DNA from: Armatimonadota bacterium
GTDB taxonomy: Bacteria; Armatimonadota; Zipacnadia; Zipacnadales; UBA5352
Assembly: GCA_034722055.1 (NCBI GenBank)
Contig: JAYENL010000077.1
Coordinates: 1-44,540, forward strand
Length of the DNA: 44,540 bases
Direction: 5' to 3'
In this document: piece by piece, positions 20,713 through 31,749 of the stretch
Position numbering within the stretch: position 1 is the stretch's first letter
Layout: the number at the start of each line of letters is the position of its first letter
Translations under genes and position numbers: made by a program
Notes under the pieces: model-generated
Database searches by the model: none
Seen by the model: the letters and a program-made list of their open reading frames with translations, nothing else
Told to the model about the DNA's origin: nothing

Positions 20713-20769
20713 CGCCGGATGCATCATTCTGCACCGAGCTGGTCAGTCGGGCGAGGAGGAGGCAGCATC

Positions 20770-21447
20770 ATGCCCGGTATTGGCGATCAGGTGAAGTCGG
20801 TGAACCGACGCGTGTCGCGCTGGGCGAGGCGCACCGGGACTCTGGTGAGCCAGTGGTGGGAGGAGGTCAGCGCCATCCAGGAGCGCCGCAGCGAGATCCG
20901 CGAGCTGGCGCGCGAGCGCCGCAGGCTCCTGGTGGAGATGGGCACGAAGGTCTACTCGCTGCACCGCAAGGGGAAGGTCCAGAACCGTGACCTGCGGGGC
21001 GACTGCGAGCGCATCGACGACATCGGCGAGAGCATCGACCGGTTGGAGCAGGAGATCGCCGAGCTCAAGCGGACCGCGGCCGCCAGGCCGCCCAAGACCA
21101 TCGAGGTCGAGGATGAGTCCCCGGTGGTCGGCGAGGAGGACATCGAGGAGCCCGCCGCCGAGGAGCCTGAGCCGGAGGCTGCCGAGGAGGGCGCTGAGCC
21201 GTGCGCAGAGCCGGAGGCGCCAGGTGAGGGCGAGGCGGAAGAGGAGCAGGAGACCGAGGCGCCGGCTGAGGGCGCCGACGAGGGCGGGGGCGACCCATCC
21301 GGTGAGTTCTTCGCGCCCCCCGCCGGCACCGCCGACCTCGAGGGGGCTGGCGACATGCCGCAGCAGCCCTACACCGCCCCTGATGATGCGGAGGATCAGG
21401 ACGCTCACGAGGGCCATGAGGGCGGGGCGCCGGGCGGCGACGAGTAG
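20770..21447 (+). CDS. Hypothetical protein: N-terminal coiled coil plus acidic disordered tail
   Basis: Strong GAGGAGGAGG RBS before ATG 20770; helical heptad-like N-terminal half and an E/P/A/G-rich C-terminal half. Confidence 0.75.
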
Positions 21448-21533
21448 GCCCCGAGGACGCCAGCAGATGCCGGCGCGGGGCGGCCGAGGCCGGCCGTCCC
21501 GGCAGCATGCATTACTCTGACGGGGAGCAGACC

Positions 21534-23189
21534 ATGACCAAGTACTGCTTTGTCACCGGTGGCGTGGTATCGGGGATCGGCAAGGGTATCTCATGCGCCT
21601 CCCTGGGGCGGCTCCTGAAGGCCCGGGGCTTCAGGATCACGATCCTCAAGATCGATCCCTACATCAACGTCGATGCCGGGCTCATGAACCCCTTCCAGCA
21701 CGGGGAGGTCTTCGTCACCGACGATGGCGCGGAGACCGACCTGGACCTGGGGCACTACGAGCGCTTCGTCGATGAGCCGCTGTCCCAGCTCTCGAACGTC
21801 ACCACCGGCCAGATCTACGGCTCGGTCATCGCAAAGGAGCGGGATGGCGACTACTACCTGGGGCAGACCGTCCAGGTCATCCCGCACATCACCGACGAGA
21901 TCAAGTCCAGCATCCGCAAGTGTGCCCACGCCTACGACGCTGATGTCCTCATCACCGAGATCGGCGGCACCGTCGGCGACATCGAGGGCCAGCCCTTCTA
22001 CGAGGCCATCCGCCAGATGCGCATCGAGGAGGGCCGGGACAACGTCTGCTACGTCCACGTCACCCTGGTGCCCTATCTGCCCACCGTCGGCGAGCTGAAG
22101 ACCAAGCCCAGCCAGCACTCCGTGCGGGAGCTGCGCAGCATCGGCCTGCAGCCGGACCTGCTGATCGTGCGCACGCCCATGCCGCTGACCAGGGAGGTCC
22201 GCCGCAAGCTCTCCCTGTTCTGCGACGTGCCGGACGAGGCGGTCATTGAGGCCGTGGATGTGGAGGAGTCGCTGTATCATATCCCCCTGGCGCTGGAGGA
22301 GCAGAACATCGCCGACCTGGTCTGCAAGGCCCTGGAGATGCCGCGCCGCACCCCCGACCTTGACGAGTGGCGCCGGATCTGCGACACCTGCGCGGAGCCC
22401 GACCGCGAGGTCACCATCGCCATGGTTGGCAAGTACATGGACCTGCAGGACGCCTACCTGTCGGTGACAGAGGCTCTCATGCACGGCGGCATCGCCAACA
22501 GCGCGCGCGTGAACATCCAGTACGTGGACTCCGAGGAGATCGAGCGCAACGGCGCTGACGCGTTCCTCAGCGACATGCACGGCGTGCTGGTGCCGGGCGG
22601 CTTCGGCGACCGCGGCATTGAGGGCAAGATCGAGGCCATCGGCTACGCCCGCGAGAAGGGCATCCCCTACCTGGGCCTGTGCCTGGGGCTGCAGACGGCG
22701 GTGATCGAGTTCGCGCGCAACGTCTGCGGCCTGGAGGACGCCAACTCCCGCGAGTTCAAGGAGGACGCCGAGCACCCCGTCATCATCTACATGAAGGAGC
22801 AGGAGTACGTCACCGAGCTCGGGGGCACCATGCGCCTGGGGGCTTACCCCTGCGTCCTCAAGCCCGGCTCCCTGGCCGCGAGGCTCTACGAGGCTGAGGA
22901 GATCTCCGAGCGCCACCGCCACCGGCTGGAGGTCAGCAACCAGTATCGCGAGACGCTCGCCGAGCACGGCCTGGTGTTCTCGGGCACCTCGCCGGAGGGC
23001 GACCTGGTGGAGATGATCGAGCTGCCCGACCACCCCTTCTTCATCGCCACGCAGTTCCACCCGGAGTTCAAGTCCCGCCCCAACCGCGCCCACCCGCTCT
23101 TCCGCGGCTTCGTGGAGGCGGCGCTGATCCACGCCGGCCAGCTCGCCGAGCCCCAGCCCCAACCCGCCGAAGCCGAGGCGGAGGCGTAA
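21534..23189 (+). CDS. pyrG: CTP synthase
   Basis: [78 protein letters not shown] and QFHPEF. GGGGAG RBS before ATG 21534. Confidence 0.98.
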
Positions 23190-23225
23190 GACGTCGCCAC
23201 CAATTGGCGCTGTAGGAGGGAAGCT

Positions 23226-24473
23226 ATGTCTGAGGCCACCAGAGCTGCGTGGAGGCGGGCGTTCAACAATCTCGAACTCCCGCTTGACCGTCCCGAGCGA
23301 TTTGACGATTGGCATGTTGCGCGCGACTTGCAGGAAGTTGACAAGCTCATCGAGACCTTCCGGATGAGCGACGAGTGCGTAAGAGCACTCTACACAGGCC
23401 ACAATCGCAGTAGGAAGTCTACGGAACTCTTTCGGGTCATGAGGCAGCTGGATGGGGATTTCACGCCGGTTTACTTCTCGGCCGATGATGCCCTTGACCG
23501 GATGGACCTGTCTCACCTCGATGTTCTTCTCGGCATGTGCGAAGCTTTGCTGGCTCGAGCAACTCAGATAGGAGTGGAACTCGATCCTACTGTCGGAGAG
23601 AGCCTGAATGCCTGGGCTGCTGAGCTGCATGACGACGTCGAACAGATCAGTGCCGAGTCACATACCGATGTTCTTCAGGCAACCGCTGGCGTGCGTGCCT
23701 ACATATTCGACCTCTTCGCGAGACTCAGGACAGAAGGCCAGACGCGCAGGGAGATCCGCCGGAGGCTTGAGCCTGAGGGCGGACAGATCCTGGAGGTGCT
23801 CGAACTCATAGCTGCTGGCTTCCAGAACAGCGACGTGCCCAAGCCTCTGCTCATCGTGGACGACCTTGAGAAGTGCGACCTCGATACAGCCGAAGGCCTG
23901 TTCATCAACCATGCCCCGGAACTCAGTGAGGCGCCCTGTGATGTGATCTATACCGTGCCGATTACACTGCGGGCGAGTCACCGATTCGCCGTTGTTCGCG
24001 GCCGCTACGGCGACGATTTCCTCCTGCCTATGATCTCCGTCCATGATCGGGAGGGGAGTCCTGCTTCGGACCGCGAAGTAATTGCTACCATCATCAGCCG
24101 ACGGATTGAGCAGGGACTGCTCCCGAAAGAAGTGATCGATTCCATTGTGCTTAACAGCGGCGGCATAATCGGGGACGCATTGCGCATGGCCCGGAACGTG
24201 TGCCGTACAGCCTCGATGCAACAGGCGGAGGCCGCGACGCCTTCGATGGCGGAAAACGAGTTCCGCGAACTGGTGAAGGCTTTCGCCATGTCGCTCGATG
24301 AAGACGACTATGGGAGGCTGCGTGAGGTCGCCACCGCACGCCACTCGCCGATCGATGAGGATCACCGGCGCCTCATGCATGCACTCGCGATTCTGCGATA
24401 TGAGGACGATCCGTATTGGTACGACGTACACCCGGCGGTCCGCAGGCTGCTGGAGGCGAGAGGACTGGTGTAG
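23226..24473 (+). CDS. P-loop NTPase-fold protein (AAA/STAND-like) with degenerate Walker A
   Basis: ALYTGHNRSRKSTEL at the Walker A position, LLIVDDLEK (Walker B), VIYTVP, SGGIIGDALRM and a C-terminal WYDVHPAV. AGGAGG RBS and atypical codon usage. Confidence 0.75.
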   Translation: MSEATRAAWRRAFNNLELPLDRPERFDDWHVARDLQEVDKLIETFRMSDECVRALYTGHNRSRKSTELFRVMRQLDGDFTPVYFSADDALDRMDLSHLDVLLGMCEALLARATQIGVELDPTVGESLNAWAAELHDDVEQISAESHTDVLQATAGVRAYIFDLFARLRTEGQTRREIRRRLEPEGGQILEVLELIAAGFQNSDVPKPLLIVDDLEKCDLDTAEGLFINHAPELSEAPCDVIYTVPITLRASHRFAVVRGRYGDDFLLPMISVHDREGSPASDREVIATIISRRIEQGLLPKEVIDSIVLNSGGIIGDALRMARNVCRTASMQQAEAATPSMAENEFRELVKAFAMSLDEDDYGRLREVATARHSPIDEDHRRLMHALAILRYEDDPYWYDVHPAVRRLLEARGLV

Positions 24474-24488
24474 GCAGGTGACACCGGC

Positions 24489-26069
24489 ATGGCCGTGGAG
24501 ATCGAGCAAAGGGAGTTCGACCGTCTCGTCGCGGGTATCGAGCTGACCGATGAGGCGCGGTACATCGCGATCGTGACCTGCAACAGCCCGCCCGGCCGCT
24601 GGGAGCTTATTGGGCGCCTGCAGGAGGCGCTGGAGGAGAAGAACATCGGCCTGGACGTCGTCCAGTTGACCGACCCCCACACGGGCCTGGCCAGCACTAT
24701 CGATGGGCACATACAGCAGCCCGGCTTCCAGTCCCTGGAGGAGAGATACTCGTCTGTCGCCATTGCCGTCAACTGGCACGACAGCGTCATCCCCACGGAC
24801 GAGCTCGAGGACGACAGGCGCACTCCCTCGGCGCTGCAGAAGTTGAACCTCGGTCGCGAGTACTTCATCGAGTTCGGGCATCCGCTGATCCTGCTCGTGC
24901 CAGAGTACGTTCACAAACGTATCGTCCGGCAGGCCCCGGACTTCTACCGGATCCGCACTGACACGGTGGACTTCCAGACCGCGCTCGAGGTCGCGGAGAC
25001 GACTGCGCAGGAGCTGATGAGCGCGGCGGAGTGGCAGGTTCAGTCAGCCGACGAGGCCCGCGCGCGGATTGACCGATATGCCGAGACGCTTGAACGGCTG
25101 GCAGGCCGCGAGGACGGCCGGTCTCGCGAGCTGCGGGCCCGCCTGCTGAACAGACTGGGCGAGGCGGAGTGGCGTCTTGGCCGGCATTCGTCAGCAATGA
25201 GCAGTTACCAGCACGCTCTTGCGATCTTCGGCGACCTTGGCGACCGGCATGGTCAGGCCGAGGCACTTAACGGCATGGGAGATGTACTCCGCCAACAAGG
25301 TGAGTATCGAGAGGCACACGAGCTCTACGCTGAGAGCCTCAACATTAGCCGCGACCTCGGAGACCGACATGCCGAGGGAGAGATCCTGAGCAACATGGCC
25401 ATCGCCTATCGTCGGCAAGGCCACTACGACAGAGCACTAAGGCTATACGAGGCCAGCTTGGACATCAGACGCGAGACTCGCGATCGTCGTGGTGAGGCCC
25501 GCGTGCTGAACAATATGGCACTCGTACACGGCCTGCAAGGGCGGCACGAGTTGGCATTGGACCTTTACGAAGAGAGCCTATCCATCAAGAGAGAGATTGG
25601 CGATCGGCGTGCCGAAGGGGGCACCTTGATGGGCATGGCGAGTGTCCACGAGAGGAAGGGCCGCTATGACGAGGCGCTTGCTCTCTACGCACAGAGCCTC
25701 CGAATCCTCTCAGACTTGGGTGACCGGTACCAACAAGCCGAAGCGCTAATGGGTATGGCGAAGGTCCATGGAGCCCAAGGTCATAATGAACGCGCACTAG
25801 CGTTGTGTGGGCAGAGCCTAGAGCTCAAGCGCGAGGTCGGTGACCGGCATGGTGAAGGACGGGTCCTCATAGACGCGGGTGTGGTCGCAAAGCATATGGG
25901 TACTGACGAGACCGCCCGCGCGTATTGGCAACAGGCTCTGTCCGTGCTAGAGGGCCTTGGCGTGCCGGAGGAGCAGCGGGTGCGGGAGTTGCTGGCGCGG
26001 CTGGATGCCGAGGGCGGCGGGTTCCCCGACCAGGAGTCTGCCGGGGACGACGAGACCGGCGAGATGTGA
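24489..26069 (+). CDS. Tetratricopeptide repeat protein with an uncharacterised N-terminal alpha/beta domain and ~7 x 40-aa TPR units
   Basis: GDR(H/R/Y)xxA/GxxLxxM repeats at 40-aa spacing; N-terminal LNLGREYF...PLILLVPEY...APDFYRIRTDTVDF. Starts 15 nt after the NTPase gene. Confidence 0.88.
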   Translation: MAVEIEQREFDRLVAGIELTDEARYIAIVTCNSPPGRWELIGRLQEALEEKNIGLDVVQLTDPHTGLASTIDGHIQQPGFQSLEERYSSVAIAVNWHDSVIPTDELEDDRRTPSALQKLNLGREYFIEFGHPLILLVPEYVHKRIVRQAPDFYRIRTDTVDFQTALEVAETTAQELMSAAEWQVQSADEARARIDRYAETLERLAGREDGRSRELRARLLNRLGEAEWRLGRHSSAMSSYQHALAIFGDLGDRHGQAEALNGMGDVLRQQGEYREAHELYAESLNISRDLGDRHAEGEILSNMAIAYRRQGHYDRALRLYEASLDIRRETRDRRGEARVLNNMALVHGLQGRHELALDLYEESLSIKREIGDRRAEGGTLMGMASVHERKGRYDEALALYAQSLRILSDLGDRYQQAEALMGMAKVHGAQGHNERALALCGQSLELKREVGDRHGEGRVLIDAGVVAKHMGTDETARAYWQQALSVLEGLGVPEEQRVRELLARLDAEGGGFPDQESAGDDETGEM

Positions 26070-26169: not shown

Positions 26170-28482
26170 ATGTCATTGCTGGAGCAGCTCAACGAACAAC
26201 AGCGCGAAGCCGCCCAGTGCATCGAGGGGCCGGTGCTCATCTTCGCCGGCGCCGGCTCGGGCAAGACCCGCGCGCTGACCTACCGCATCGCCCACATGAT
26301 CGAGAATGAGGGCATCGACCCGCGCTCCATCCTCGCGGTGACCTTCACCAACAAGGCAGCCGACGAGATGACCGAGCGCATCGAGCAGCTCGCCGGCGAG
26401 AGCGCCGGCGGCCTGTGGGCGGGGACATTCCACGCCATCTGCGCCCGCATCCTGCGCGTTGACGGTCGGCACGTGGGCGTGCCCCCGGAGTACTCCATCT
26501 TCGACGAGAGCGACCAGTCCTCCATCGTCAAGGACGTGCGCTCGCGGGTGGAGGTCAAGCTCCCCGAGAGCGACCGCTGCCGCGACCGCACCAACGCCGA
26601 GGTCCTCTGGGCCATCAGCAACGCCAAGAACGAGCTGATGACGCCCGACGACTACCGCCGCACGGCCAAGGGTCGCTTCGAGCGGCTGGTCAGCCGCGTC
26701 TACAGGGCATACCAGGAGGAGCTTGAGCGCAACAACGCGCTGGACTTCGACGACCTGATCATGCAGACCGTGGAGCTGCTGGAGGAGCACGAGGAGGTCC
26801 GCCGCAAGTACCAGCAGCGCTTCCGGTACATCCTGGTCGATGAGTACCAGGACATCAACCACGCGCAGTTCAGGTTCGTGCAGCTTCTGGCCGCCGAGCA
26901 TGGCAACCTGTGCGTGGTGGGCGATGACGACCAGTCGATCTACGGCTGGCGCGGCGCGAACGTGGGGATCATCCTGGATTTTCAGGAGCACTTCCCCGAC
27001 GCCACGGTCATCAAGCTGGAGCGCAACTACCGCTCCACGGCCAAGATCATCGAGTGCGCCAACGAGGTCATCCGCCATAATGAGAACCGGGCCGACAAGC
27101 GCCTGTGGACCGCGAATCCGCCAGGCGACAACGTGATCGTTTACGAGGCCATCAACGAGGAGGAGGAGGCGGAGTGGGTCGCCCAGACGATTGAGACGCA
27201 GGTGGGCGACGAGCTGGCGCGCTACGGCGACTACGCGGTGCTCTACCGCGTGAACGCCGCCTCGCGGAACTTCGAGCAGGCGCTGGCGGCGCGGCAGATC
27301 CCCTACGAGATCGTCGGCGGCATGCGGTACTACGACCGTGCGGAGATCAAGGATGCGCTGGCGTATCTTCGGGCGCTGCACAACCCGGCGGACAACCTGT
27401 CGCTGCGGCGGATCATCAACACCCCCACGCGCGGCATCGGCGACACCACGCAGGGGGAGCTGACGCTCATCTCCGAGCAGAACCAGGTGTCGCTGCTGGA
27501 GGCCTGCCGCATCTACGCTGCGGATGAGGACCGGCGACCGCAGTCGCGGGTTGCGGTCAGTGACTTCTACGAGCTGATGCGGTCGCTACGGCAGCGCATC
27601 GACACCGCGCCGCTGCCGGACCTGGTTCGGGCGGTGGTGGAGACCACGGGCCTCATCGACAAGCTCCGGGAGTCCGGCAAGGCCGAGGATGCCATGCGGG
27701 TGGAGAACCTGCAGGAGTTCGTGACGGTGGCGGCGGCCTTCACGCGGCAGAATCCGGACGTGGGCCTGCAGGAGTTCCTGGAGCACATCGCCCTCATCTC
27801 GGACATCGACGAGGCCGAGGAGCTATCGGGCGCGGTGTCGCTGATGACGCTGCACTCGGCCAAGGGCCTGGAGTTCCCCATCGTGTTCATGGCCTCGATG
27901 GAGGAGGGGATCTTCCCCCACGAGCGCTGCATGGGCGACGAGCACGAGCTGGAGGAGGAGCGGCGCCTGGCCTACGTGGGCATGACGCGGGCGCAGAAGC
28001 TGCTGTATCTCAGCCACGCCTTCCATCGAACCATCTACGGTGAGACGCGCCGGCAGCGGCCCTCGCGCTTCCTGGCGGACCTGCCGGAGGAGCTGATCGA
28101 CCGCCGCGAGCGGTACTCGGACGCCTCGCAGCCCCGGATGCTCGACAGCGGCGAGGAGGTGCTGGAGACGCCCTCCGGTGGGCGGAAGATCGACATCGCC
28201 GCCATCCTGGCGCGGGCGGAGGCCAACGCTGAAGAGGCCGACCGCCGGGAGAAGGAGGGCGCGGCCGAGCAGGAGCCCCGCGAGGAGAGGCCCCGTGAGC
28301 CGGCCGAGACGGCGGCTGGCGGCTTCAAGACCGGTCAGAAGGTGCGGCATCCCAAGTTCGGCCACGGCATCGTGGTCGCAGCGGAGGAGGCCAGGGATGA
28401 CTGGAAGGTCACGGTGGCCTTCCGGGATGGCGGGGGCGTGAAGAAGCTGCTCGCGAAGGCCGCCAGGCTCGAGAGGCTCTGA
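26170..28482 (+). CDS. pcrA: PcrA/UvrD superfamily 1 DNA helicase
   Basis: LNEQQREA, AGAGSGKT, AVTFTNKAA, LVDEYQD, VVGDDDQSIYGWRGA, LERNYRST, MTLHSAKGLEF, EEERRLAYVGMTRA and a C-terminal Tudor-like GQKVRHPKFGHG. Confidence 0.95.
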   Translation: MSLLEQLNEQQREAAQCIEGPVLIFAGAGSGKTRALTYRIAHMIENEGIDPRSILAVTFTNKAADEMTERIEQLAGESAGGLWAGTFHAICARILRVDGRHVGVPPEYSIFDESDQSSIVKDVRSRVEVKLPESDRCRDRTNAEVLWAISNAKNELMTPDDYRRTAKGRFERLVSRVYRAYQEELERNNALDFDDLIMQTVELLEEHEEVRRKYQQRFRYILVDEYQDINHAQFRFVQLLAAEHGNLCVVGDDDQSIYGWRGANVGIILDFQEHFPDATVIKLERNYRSTAKIIECANEVIRHNENRADKRLWTANPPGDNVIVYEAINEEEEAEWVAQTIETQVGDELARYGDYAVLYRVNAASRNFEQALAARQIPYEIVGGMRYYDRAEIKDALAYLRALHNPADNLSLRRIINTPTRGIGDTTQGELTLISEQNQVSLLEACRIYAADEDRRPQSRVAVSDFYELMRSLRQRIDTAPLPDLVRAVVETTGLIDKLRESGKAEDAMRVENLQEFVTVAAAFTRQNPDVGLQEFLEHIALISDIDEAEELSGAVSLMTLHSAKGLEFPIVFMASMEEGIFPHERCMGDEHELEEERRLAYVGMTRAQKLLYLSHAFHRTIYGETRRQRPSRFLADLPEELIDRRERYSDASQPRMLDSGEEVLETPSGGRKIDIAAILARAEANAEEADRREKEGAAEQEPREERPREPAETAAGGFKTGQKVRHPKFGHGIVVAAEEARDDWKVTVAFRDGGGVKKLLAKAARLERL

Positions 28483-30528: not shown

Positions 30529-31749
30529 GTGTCTTCATACATGCACCAGACAACGCGGCTTACACTGCACGAGAACGTCCAGTTCATCTACGAGCTGGTC
30601 CTGGCCCAGATGGAGCTGGAGGCGGCCGGCGTGGACTTCGCGGTCGGCGACAACCTCCGAGGGTTCCGGGCCAACGGCCAGCTCGACCGCGAGCGGCTCA
30701 TCCGCCGCTCCGCCTACATCAGATCACTGCAGCCCCTGCACGCCGAGGAGCTGCTGACCGACTACCACCACATCCAGCAGTACAACCAGACGCAGTCGAT
30801 CAACCAGTACCTCACGCACTGGTTCTACCCCTACAAGGGCAAGTTCCACCCCCAGATGATCCGGGCGCTGCTGGGCATCATCGGGCTGGGGCCCGGTGAC
30901 GTGGTGCTGGACCCCTTCATCGGCTCCGGGACCACGGCGGTGGAGGCGCAGCTTCTGGGCATCGACTGCATCGGCGTGGACATCTCGCCACTGTGCTGCC
31001 TCATCTCACGGGTGAAGACGCAGTCCTGGGAGCGCCTCGATGAGATCGAGGAGGCGTCGGAGTACGTGGCGCCCTGCTCGGACAACGTGCACCAGCAGCG
31101 GCTCTTCCGCTCGGCCGAGGACCGGGAGCTGCCTGAGGGGCCGGTGAGGGACTTCTTCGACCTCGCCGAGATGATCGCCCGCTCCGACACCTCCCGCCGG
31201 CGCCGCGACCCGGTGCAGGCCTTCGTGCACAACCGCGACAAGATGCTCGCCTCGGTCCGCGATCACCTGGAGGTGAAGCGGCGGCTGGAGCTGGACTTCG
31301 GCACGGTGGACATCGTCGAGGGCGATGTCCGGGAGATGGAGCTGGAGGACGCCAGCGTGGACGGCATCGTCACCTCGCCGCCCTACTCCATTGCCCTCAA
31401 CTACATCAAGAACGACGAGCACGCGCTGGAGGCCATGGGCTTCGATCTCGACGAGCTGAGCGAGGAGTTCATCGGCGTGCGCGGCCGCGGCAAGGAGCGC
31501 TTCGAGCTCTACGAGGAGGACATGCGCCAGGCGGCGCGGGAGATGCAGCGCGTGATGCGCCCCGGGGCAGTCGCGGCGGTGGTCATCGGCAATGTCACCT
31601 ACCAGGGCGAGGAGATCGACACCACTGGCATGTTCACCGACGCCTGCGAGGACACCGGGCTGAGCCTGGAGCGCTCCGTAGACAAGATCATCTTCGGGCT
31701 CTATAATGTGATGCAGAAGGAGTACATCCTGCTGTTCCGCAAGCAGTGA
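30529..31749 (+). CDS. Amino (N4-cytosine/N6-adenine) DNA methyltransferase, alpha-type motif order
   Basis: THWFYPYKGKFHPQM (motif X), VLDPFIGSGTT (motif I, SAM binding) and then IVTSPPY (motif IV; SPPY is typical of m4C enzymes). Alternative ATG start at 30541. Confidence 0.85.
   Translation: MSSYMHQTTRLTLHENVQFIYELVLAQMELEAAGVDFAVGDNLRGFRANGQLDRERLIRRSAYIRSLQPLHAEELLTDYHHIQQYNQTQSINQYLTHWFYPYKGKFHPQMIRALLGIIGLGPGDVVLDPFIGSGTTAVEAQLLGIDCIGVDISPLCCLISRVKTQSWERLDEIEEASEYVAPCSDNVHQQRLFRSAEDRELPEGPVRDFFDLAEMIARSDTSRRRRDPVQAFVHNRDKMLASVRDHLEVKRRLELDFGTVDIVEGDVREMELEDASVDGIVTSPPYSIALNYIKNDEHALEAMGFDLDELSEEFIGVRGRGKERFELYEEDMRQAAREMQRVMRPGAVAAVVIGNVTYQGEEIDTTGMFTDACEDTGLSLERSVDKIIFGLYNVMQKEYILLFRKQ

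Follow-up and report, generated by a model that had tools for sequence, protein, structure and literature searches.

An ATPase and a predicted dead AAA+ partner as an optional gene pair between pyrG and pcrA of an Armatimonadota bacterium

The contig JAYENL010000077.1 of an Armatimonadota bacterium (assembly GCA_034722055.1, order Zipacnadales), analyzed here over its 44,540 nucleotides (nt; the window), raises the question of what two co-oriented genes do between the core genes pyrG and pcrA. A sequence-only reading of this DNA had taken them for a foreign module, with a nucleoside triphosphatase (NTPase) on one chain and a tetratricopeptide repeat (TPR) sensor on the other, and had proposed a split sensor or conflict system. 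According to the analyses presented below, the pair represents a genuine, widely distributed and seemingly unnamed variant of the theme in which an active STAND protein is combined with an inactive one. The reading that we prefer, namely that the pair is an optional cassette from a widespread unnamed family and acts as a two-chain, ATP-driven switch of immune type, has in our judgement an even chance of being correct.

The ATPase and its predicted dead partner

Gene 1 (23226-24473, + strand) encodes a protein of 415 amino acids (aa), modelled with a predicted local distance difference test (pLDDT) score of 93.8 as an Orc/Cdc6- or MNS-STAND-like AAA+ ATPase, with a P-loop core carrying a helical insert, a lid and a predicted winged helix. 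The core-lid-winged helix order of the MNS-type STAND proteins is reproduced in this predicted structure, which matches Cdc6, TnsC, PAB2304 and SSO1545 over 244-306 residues, with VIA Z scores of 16.6 for Cdc6, 16.3 for TnsC and 15.8 for PAB2304 (305 residues), the last of which presumably possesses a winged helix of its own. The P-loop layout assigned to gene 1 from sequence is thereby upheld, and all motifs quoted for both genes are present; what had gone unnoticed is a G63R change in the Walker A position (G58-T66, 23397-23423), which is discussed with the fate of this copy. No meaningful match to any Pfam, NCBIfam or PADLOC family was found for gene 1; weak matches supporting a KAP NTPase label occur in some homologues only and not in gene 1, and the short and weak PADLOC matches to HmaC (E 0.045), mad8 and PDC-S20 were set aside. 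The family comprises 6609 clusters at E ≤0.001 and 2604 at E ≤1e-30 (clusters at 50% identity). In an alignment of 150 ATPase rows, gathered by word and profile searches and not by motif search, K64, R293 and G313 are invariant, the Walker B acid is present as D212 (D or E in 149/149 other rows) and the polar sensor-1 residue as T243 (144/149). Altogether, this copy keeps 22 of the 24 near-invariant columns. No conserved arginine was detected before strand 5 of the ATPase, where no position exceeds 20/142 (located by predicted secondary structure, not by superposition), or in the helix after Walker B, where none exceeds 34/149.

Gene 2 (24489-26069, + strand, 526 aa) begins with the alpha/beta domain that had been noticed from sequence and estimated at about 200 aa; the model (pLDDT 89.6) confines it to about 165 aa (residues 1-165, 24489-24983), followed by a helical linker. 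Its five strands are arranged in AAA+ order, and its fold matches include TnsC (VIA Z 12.2, root-mean-square deviation 3.7, 153 residues) and Orc3 (Z 11.2), and also Pex1/Pex6, RFC and Cdc6. A Walker A motif is found in 0/72 rows of the N-domain alignment, and the lid and winged helix are missing from the model. The domain is accordingly predicted to be a dead copy of the AAA+ fold, which is in line with the dead P-loop suspected earlier. It has no Pfam family (none was listed for the 72 N-domains at E 0.05), a sequence search of its alignment against the PDB gave no match, and it occurs frequently in the ESM Atlas, in most cases ahead of TPRs and occasionally by itself. A profile alignment of dead domain and ATPase that places a GLE motif on Walker B (E 0.029, probability 1.7) was not used as evidence. 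The remainder of gene 2 consists of seven 40-residue TPR units, the number given earlier as about seven (residues 212-491, 25122-25961; Pfam TPR_12, E 8e-62; DNA period of 120 nt), which likely form a sensor, and of an acidic tail extending to 26069.

The two families travel together. Among 88 ATPase loci, 8 from relatives and the best 80 of at least 571 in a genome scan that selected intact Walker A motifs, the dead domain lies within 1 kb downstream of the ATPase in 81 of the 84 evaluable cases (4 of 88 are cut by contig ends, and L018 and L111 are one contig). Pairs were found in Cyanobacteriota, Acidobacteriota, Chloroflexota, Planctomycetota, Pseudomonadota and Thermodesulfobacteriota, and also in methanogenic archaea. 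The reciprocal search of 61 genomes located the dead domain at 10 places, nine of which adjoin the ATPase, the tenth being at a contig end. Finally, four natural fusions of the two (P0123, P0178, P0179 and P0180) form one clade, with the dead domain first; one of the four is labelled Aminicenantes, and P0180 has no canonical Walker A.

The conserved residues of the dead domain fall where those of the ATPase are missing. N120, R123 and D151 are invariant (R123 in 71/71 other rows), W155 occurs in 70/71 other rows and is replaced by Ile in this copy, and R156 occurs in 47/71. Predicted secondary structure puts R123 in the helix that follows the Walker B strand and R156 immediately ahead of strand 5, two positions that in the origin recognition complex (ORC) point towards the nucleotide site of the neighboring subunit (PMC5291709). 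No arginine finger is conserved in the ATPase family, whereas the dead domain has the invariant R123 and, in 47/71 rows, R156, a pattern that suggests activation in trans by an arginine of the partner. Together with the fusions, this complementarity is consistent with a hetero-oligomer of ATPase and dead domain, as the sequence-only reading had supposed.

Under the preferred reading, the TPR array would be the sensor of a foreign protein, whose binding would gate the switch by freeing the dead domain. This domain would then stack head-to-tail against the ATPase in the manner of AAA+ subunits and would lend it R123 and/or R156, as Orc4 lends an arginine finger to Orc1, whereupon the completed ATPase site would drive oligomer formation. 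The activated oligomer might itself be the output, causing growth arrest via the winged helix or ATP turnover; this step, which has the least support, is proposed because no separate effector travels with the pair.

In line with a sensory role for the distal part of the partner, its C-terminus varies, as had been anticipated. Thirty of 87 partners were scanned at E 1e-12: in 25 the N-domain is followed by TPRs (in one case together with NACHT and HEAT), in three by nSTAND1 and WD40, in one by sigma-70 region 4 and in one by nothing. The 69 complete partners range from 165 to 1825 aa. Median identities are 0.87 for the ATPase, 0.86 for the N-domain and 0.64 for the next 250 residues (73 non-independent locus pairs with ATPase identity ≥0.8). 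The correlation of partner identities (rho 0.51, 21 loci) is expected from linkage alone and was not counted as co-evolution, and contact prediction would require more than the 79 pairs available. In the nSTAND1-WD40 and NACHT-HEAT proteins the dead domain is N-terminal, in the position of an adaptor. The proposal that NTPase and sensor are divided between two chains is true of the separate open reading frames (ORFs) in the window but too simple for the family. In some relatives a complete nSTAND1 or NACHT NTPase is already part of the partner, so that the dead domain resembles a module for docking onto a separate ATPase rather than one half of a split NLR. It is possible, though we hold it only tentatively, that this represents a widespread, unnamed wiring of bacterial immunity, in which a constant ATPase, unable to form a full active site alone, acts as executioner and is licensed by the arginine of a dead AAA+ adaptor bearing interchangeable sensors (TPR, nSTAND1-WD40 or NACHT-HEAT).

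Several individual loci deserve description. In three Nostocales (L073, L079 and L092), a dead-domain-TPR gene lies upstream of the ATPase and a dead-domain-only gene downstream, and this solitary domain might serve as a decoy or regulator. Upstream of a normal pair, L109:5364-6494 encodes a further dead-domain protein with sigma-70 region 4 at its C-terminus. At L020:5437-10744 (G019:C110), a co-oriented run encodes a YukD ubiquitin-like protein, a ThiF E1, the ATPase, its partner and a JAB protease, and is possibly a bacterial ubiquitination defence locus with the pair as cargo or sensor. In P0089 a HipA kinase domain precedes the ATPase in one fused protein. This fusion and the run at L020 speak for a conflict role, as does the vWA fusion at L151 described below.

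The pair as an optional cassette at the pyrG-pcrA junction

In the window, gene 1 starts 36 nt after pyrG (CTP synthase, 21507-23189, + strand; NCBIfam PRK05380, 835 bits vs cut-off 308), gene 2 follows gene 1 after 15 nt, as had been reported, and pcrA/uvrD (helicase, 26170-28482, + strand; TIGR01073, 856 bits, slightly below the cut-off of 911) follows after a further 100 nt. The G+C counts made by hand proved exact (31/60 at 23401-23460, 33/60 at 25381-25440 and 43/60 at 22141-22200 in pyrG), and the deviating composition that they were taken to indicate is evident within the window, where G+C content at third codon positions (GC3) is 0.68 in gene 1 and 0.76 in gene 2 compared with 0.87-0.95 for eight further genes. 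At genome scale the contrast is moderate, with 12% (gene 1) and 30% (gene 2) of 2568 long ORFs predicted by a rough caller being equally low or lower, and the N-domain of gene 2 alone is host-like (GC3 0.86). No second copy of the pair was found elsewhere in the genome, no promoter-like site, no terminator above chance and no convincing target duplication or end repeat around it; no RNA dataset containing the window was listed.

Full-length pairs were present in 7 of 60 relatives and in 1 of 17 from the same family; in an ATPase tree built by a quick method they are distributed over at least three branches. In 24 of the 30 relatives that show both pyrG and pcrA on one stretch the two genes are adjacent, so the site is empty in most, which answers the question raised earlier about their adjacency. 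Among the six inserts, G011 has a 972-aa likely fused restriction-methylase (weak IIG match), G026 AbiEi-AbiEii and G040 RHH-ParE. Where pcrA is out of view, a defence-type gene directly follows pyrG in G010 (a single-chain STAND-TPR protein) and G014 (a methylase fusion), and an AbiEi-like gene, recognized by eye, does so in G053; ten other relatives have unrelated genes after pyrG. The defence-type genes after pyrG in relatives are located at L137:1762-4677, L138:9642-12617, L144:1832-3321, L145:8909-9402, L134:1-2292 and L171:2-526. The gene pair is an optional cassette at a junction which it shares with restriction, abortive-infection and toxin-antitoxin genes.

The further claim that this junction is a hotspot for defence genes is a moderate one, the counts covering this junction alone, and it weighs against an immune role that the remaining three of the six inserts are one uncharacterized gene in three genomes of one family. 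This gene encodes 306 aa with paired CxxC motifs (L146:8617-9537, L147:1819-2736 and L149:1612-2529) and has no Pfam match. No literature on the pyrG-pcrA junction was found. As to other genes of the window, a coiled-coil gene with an acidic tail upstream of pyrG (20719-21447), for which a library scan gave no family at a useful score, is kept in 20 of 29 relatives' loci, and a lone N4/N6 DNA methylase gene lies at 30529-31749 (+ strand), about 4.5 kb from the pair.

Relation to known systems

In concept, the pair comes closest to the nSTAND2 two-gene operon (Kaur et al. 2021, PMC8195603), in which, as here, an active MNS-like STAND gene lies upstream of an inactive, TPR-bearing one, and which is described as mobile, with a hetero-multimer being proposed. 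Unlike the present pair, the inactive nSTAND2 module retains a winged helix and has a HEPN or GT4 effector at its end, and an arginine finger is present in each of the two nSTAND2 proteins (PMC8195603), whereas the partner described here is a bare 165-residue dead core followed by helices and TPRs, and its ATPase has no conserved finger. The searched supplements of PMC8195603 contain the motifs of neither family. No HEPN or GT4 family was found in gene 2 or in the 30 of 87 partners scanned at E 1e-12, and no match to the nSTAND2 profile was listed for the 72 N-domains at E 0.05. We take Pfam to hold an nSTAND2 model.

A compact inactive core with an Orc/Cdc6-type ATPase partner is also known from BREX, where BrxB is combined with BrxC, and from the iSTAND of MoxR-vWA systems (PMC12839542, PMC13326643, PMC7159879). 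These cores are described as having neither Walker motifs nor a helical bundle, and the N-domain model is of the same compact kind. In contrast to BREX and iSTAND loci, no methylase, PglX, PglZ, MoxR or vWA gene stands beside the pair, which is flanked by pyrG and pcrA. The N-domain model also differs from BrxB in having helices 139-153 after strand 4 instead of a three-stranded beta cap, and BrxB is described as barely conserved (PMC12839542, PMC13326643), whereas the dead domain has invariant residues and a fused repeat sensor. The fold matches listed for the N-domain did not include BrxB, a negative that excludes nothing.

Like the Avs/NLR-like STAND receptors (Lee et al. 2026, bioRxiv 10.64898/2026.01.04.697583), the pair combines a STAND-like ATPase with a TPR sensor of variable length; however, those receptors, which are activated by a phage protein and act against phages, have effector, NTPase and sensor in one chain, whereas here two ORFs encode an ATPase without a sensor and a sensor chain without a working NTPase or effector. 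The ATPase may be among the 589 STAND clades of that study. Similarity to ORC (PMC5291709) consists in the fold class and in active sites built from two different subunits: Orc1 is activated by the arginine finger of Orc4, and Orc2 and Orc3 are inactive. Unlike the gene pair, ORC is a six-subunit eukaryotic replication initiator, has no repeat sensor and is not mobile. No description of the pair was found in the open-licence literature searched, including the accessible portion of the DGR preprint 10.1101/2023.09.22.558884.

Competing readings and the state of this copy

None of the three outcomes that the sequence-only reading had named as fatal to it was observed: the two genes co-occur, the pair is not fixed at this locus across the lineage with host-like composition, and no characterized system matched in Pfam, NCBIfam or PADLOC. 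Several observations count against an immune-type switch. Only 12 of the 127 nearest neighbors in 32 loci match PADLOC at 1e-15, a raw count for these loci, and the majority of the 12 belong to generic types (sigma-54 activators, RecD, GlgB, ABC ATPases); the pair usually stands alone between housekeeping genes. Among the 80 collection loci, the same radical-SAM neighbor recurs in 14 and the same ftsQ-like neighbor in 10, all cyanobacterial, as with core genes; the former we take to be cofG-like, and both gene names are presumptive. In agreement with the earlier impression that no effector is visible, neither an effector domain nor a conserved third gene was found in the pair, the 30 scanned partners or the examined neighborhoods. 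The ATPase was not found in phage records of the collection searched and occurs on only 10 of 72,556 plasmids. The dead domain is missing at L084, L115 (with a broken ATPase) and L118, R156 is missing in 24/71 N-domain rows, and the subclade of this copy lacks the sensor-2-type Arg316 after the SGG turn, which is present in 116/149 ATPase rows but absent from 10/10 of the nearest ones. At L151, a gene following a MoxR gene encodes a vWA-type protein with the ATPase fused to its end (P0131 and P0161 match it end to end); no dead domain is in view there, and the ATPase may therefore not always need it.

In a rival reading, the same two-chain switch would serve ordinary signalling or protein remodelling, in the manner of MalT or AfsR, and its position at a variable junction would be incidental. 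The mostly housekeeping neighbors, the fixed neighbors in 24/80 loci, all cyanobacterial, the sigma-70 region 4 DNA-binding domain on the L109 dead-domain protein and the lack of an effector all favor such a role. We nonetheless consider it rather unlikely, given the patchy and repeatedly acquired distribution in this order, the junction common to restriction, AbiE and toxin-antitoxin genes, the fast change of the repeats and the fusions of the ATPase into MoxR-vWA conflict systems, whose vWA-fused position is the place of effectors in the ternary systems (Kaur et al. 2020, 2021).

A different explanation concerns this copy alone. Its Walker A position reads G-H-N-R-S-R-K-S-T, with Arg63 encoded by AGG (23412-23414), one base from a glycine codon; Gly occupies this position in 149/149 other rows, and the intact pattern GxxxxGK[ST], present in all 149 homologues, is not found in gene 1, which tells against a working switch in this genome. 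An assembly error was rejected, since the contigs from four runs, all brine metagenomes belonging to one study, show no other letter at this codon; two of the runs may be the source, and one covers the codon near a contig end. Because of G63R this copy is likely weakened or inactive. In run X2 the contig depth over the cassette is 24.8, about half of the 46-53 in the flanks, and in run X3 the contigs branch at the pyrG stop, which hints that part of the population, or a near relative, does without the cassette, contig depth being no share of cells. Such observations would fit a recently disabled passenger, blocked in nucleotide binding and drifting out of the population. This reading appears improbable: both frames are intact, the near-invariant columns are largely kept (22/24), the allele occurs in all four runs, ORC4 tolerates an arginine inside its P-loop, albeit at another position (PMC5291709), and it would account for this copy and not for the family. 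Decay of the cassette does recur, since the ATPase of another copy in this order (L018, G023:C182) has an altered Walker A loop and the ATPase frames of L023, L057 and L115 are broken.

It is more improbable still that the chains act as an ORC- or TnsC-like loader, in which DNA is encircled by active and dead subunits and the TPRs bring in an enzyme of the host or of a mobile element for the spread of the pair or for DNA transactions: Cdc6, ORC subunits and TnsC are indeed the best fold matches of both chains, a winged helix is predicted and a helicase gene adjoins, but these folds are common to all STAND-like ATPases, pcrA is not a neighbor of the closest homologue (L017), and neither a transposase or integrase (in the examined loci) nor convincing end repeats were found.

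The immune-type switch remains the reading that we prefer, and the residue pattern predicts that ATPase activity needs the arginine of the partner. Given G63R, the present copy is a poor choice for an assay of this prediction, and the intact homologue L017 a better one. What the locus itself adds is evidence of site, as the pair alternates here with restriction, abortive-infection and toxin-antitoxin genes. With a large ATPase family and a dead partner domain that has no Pfam family, the pair, if an immune switch, would be a common system missed by defence catalogues, and would name the output of NLR-like proteins seemingly without an effector. Should the wiring through a dead adaptor also be true, it would be a prokaryotic counterpart of the sensor-helper NLR pairs and would account for many cyanobacterial NLR-like proteins in which an effector is seemingly missing.

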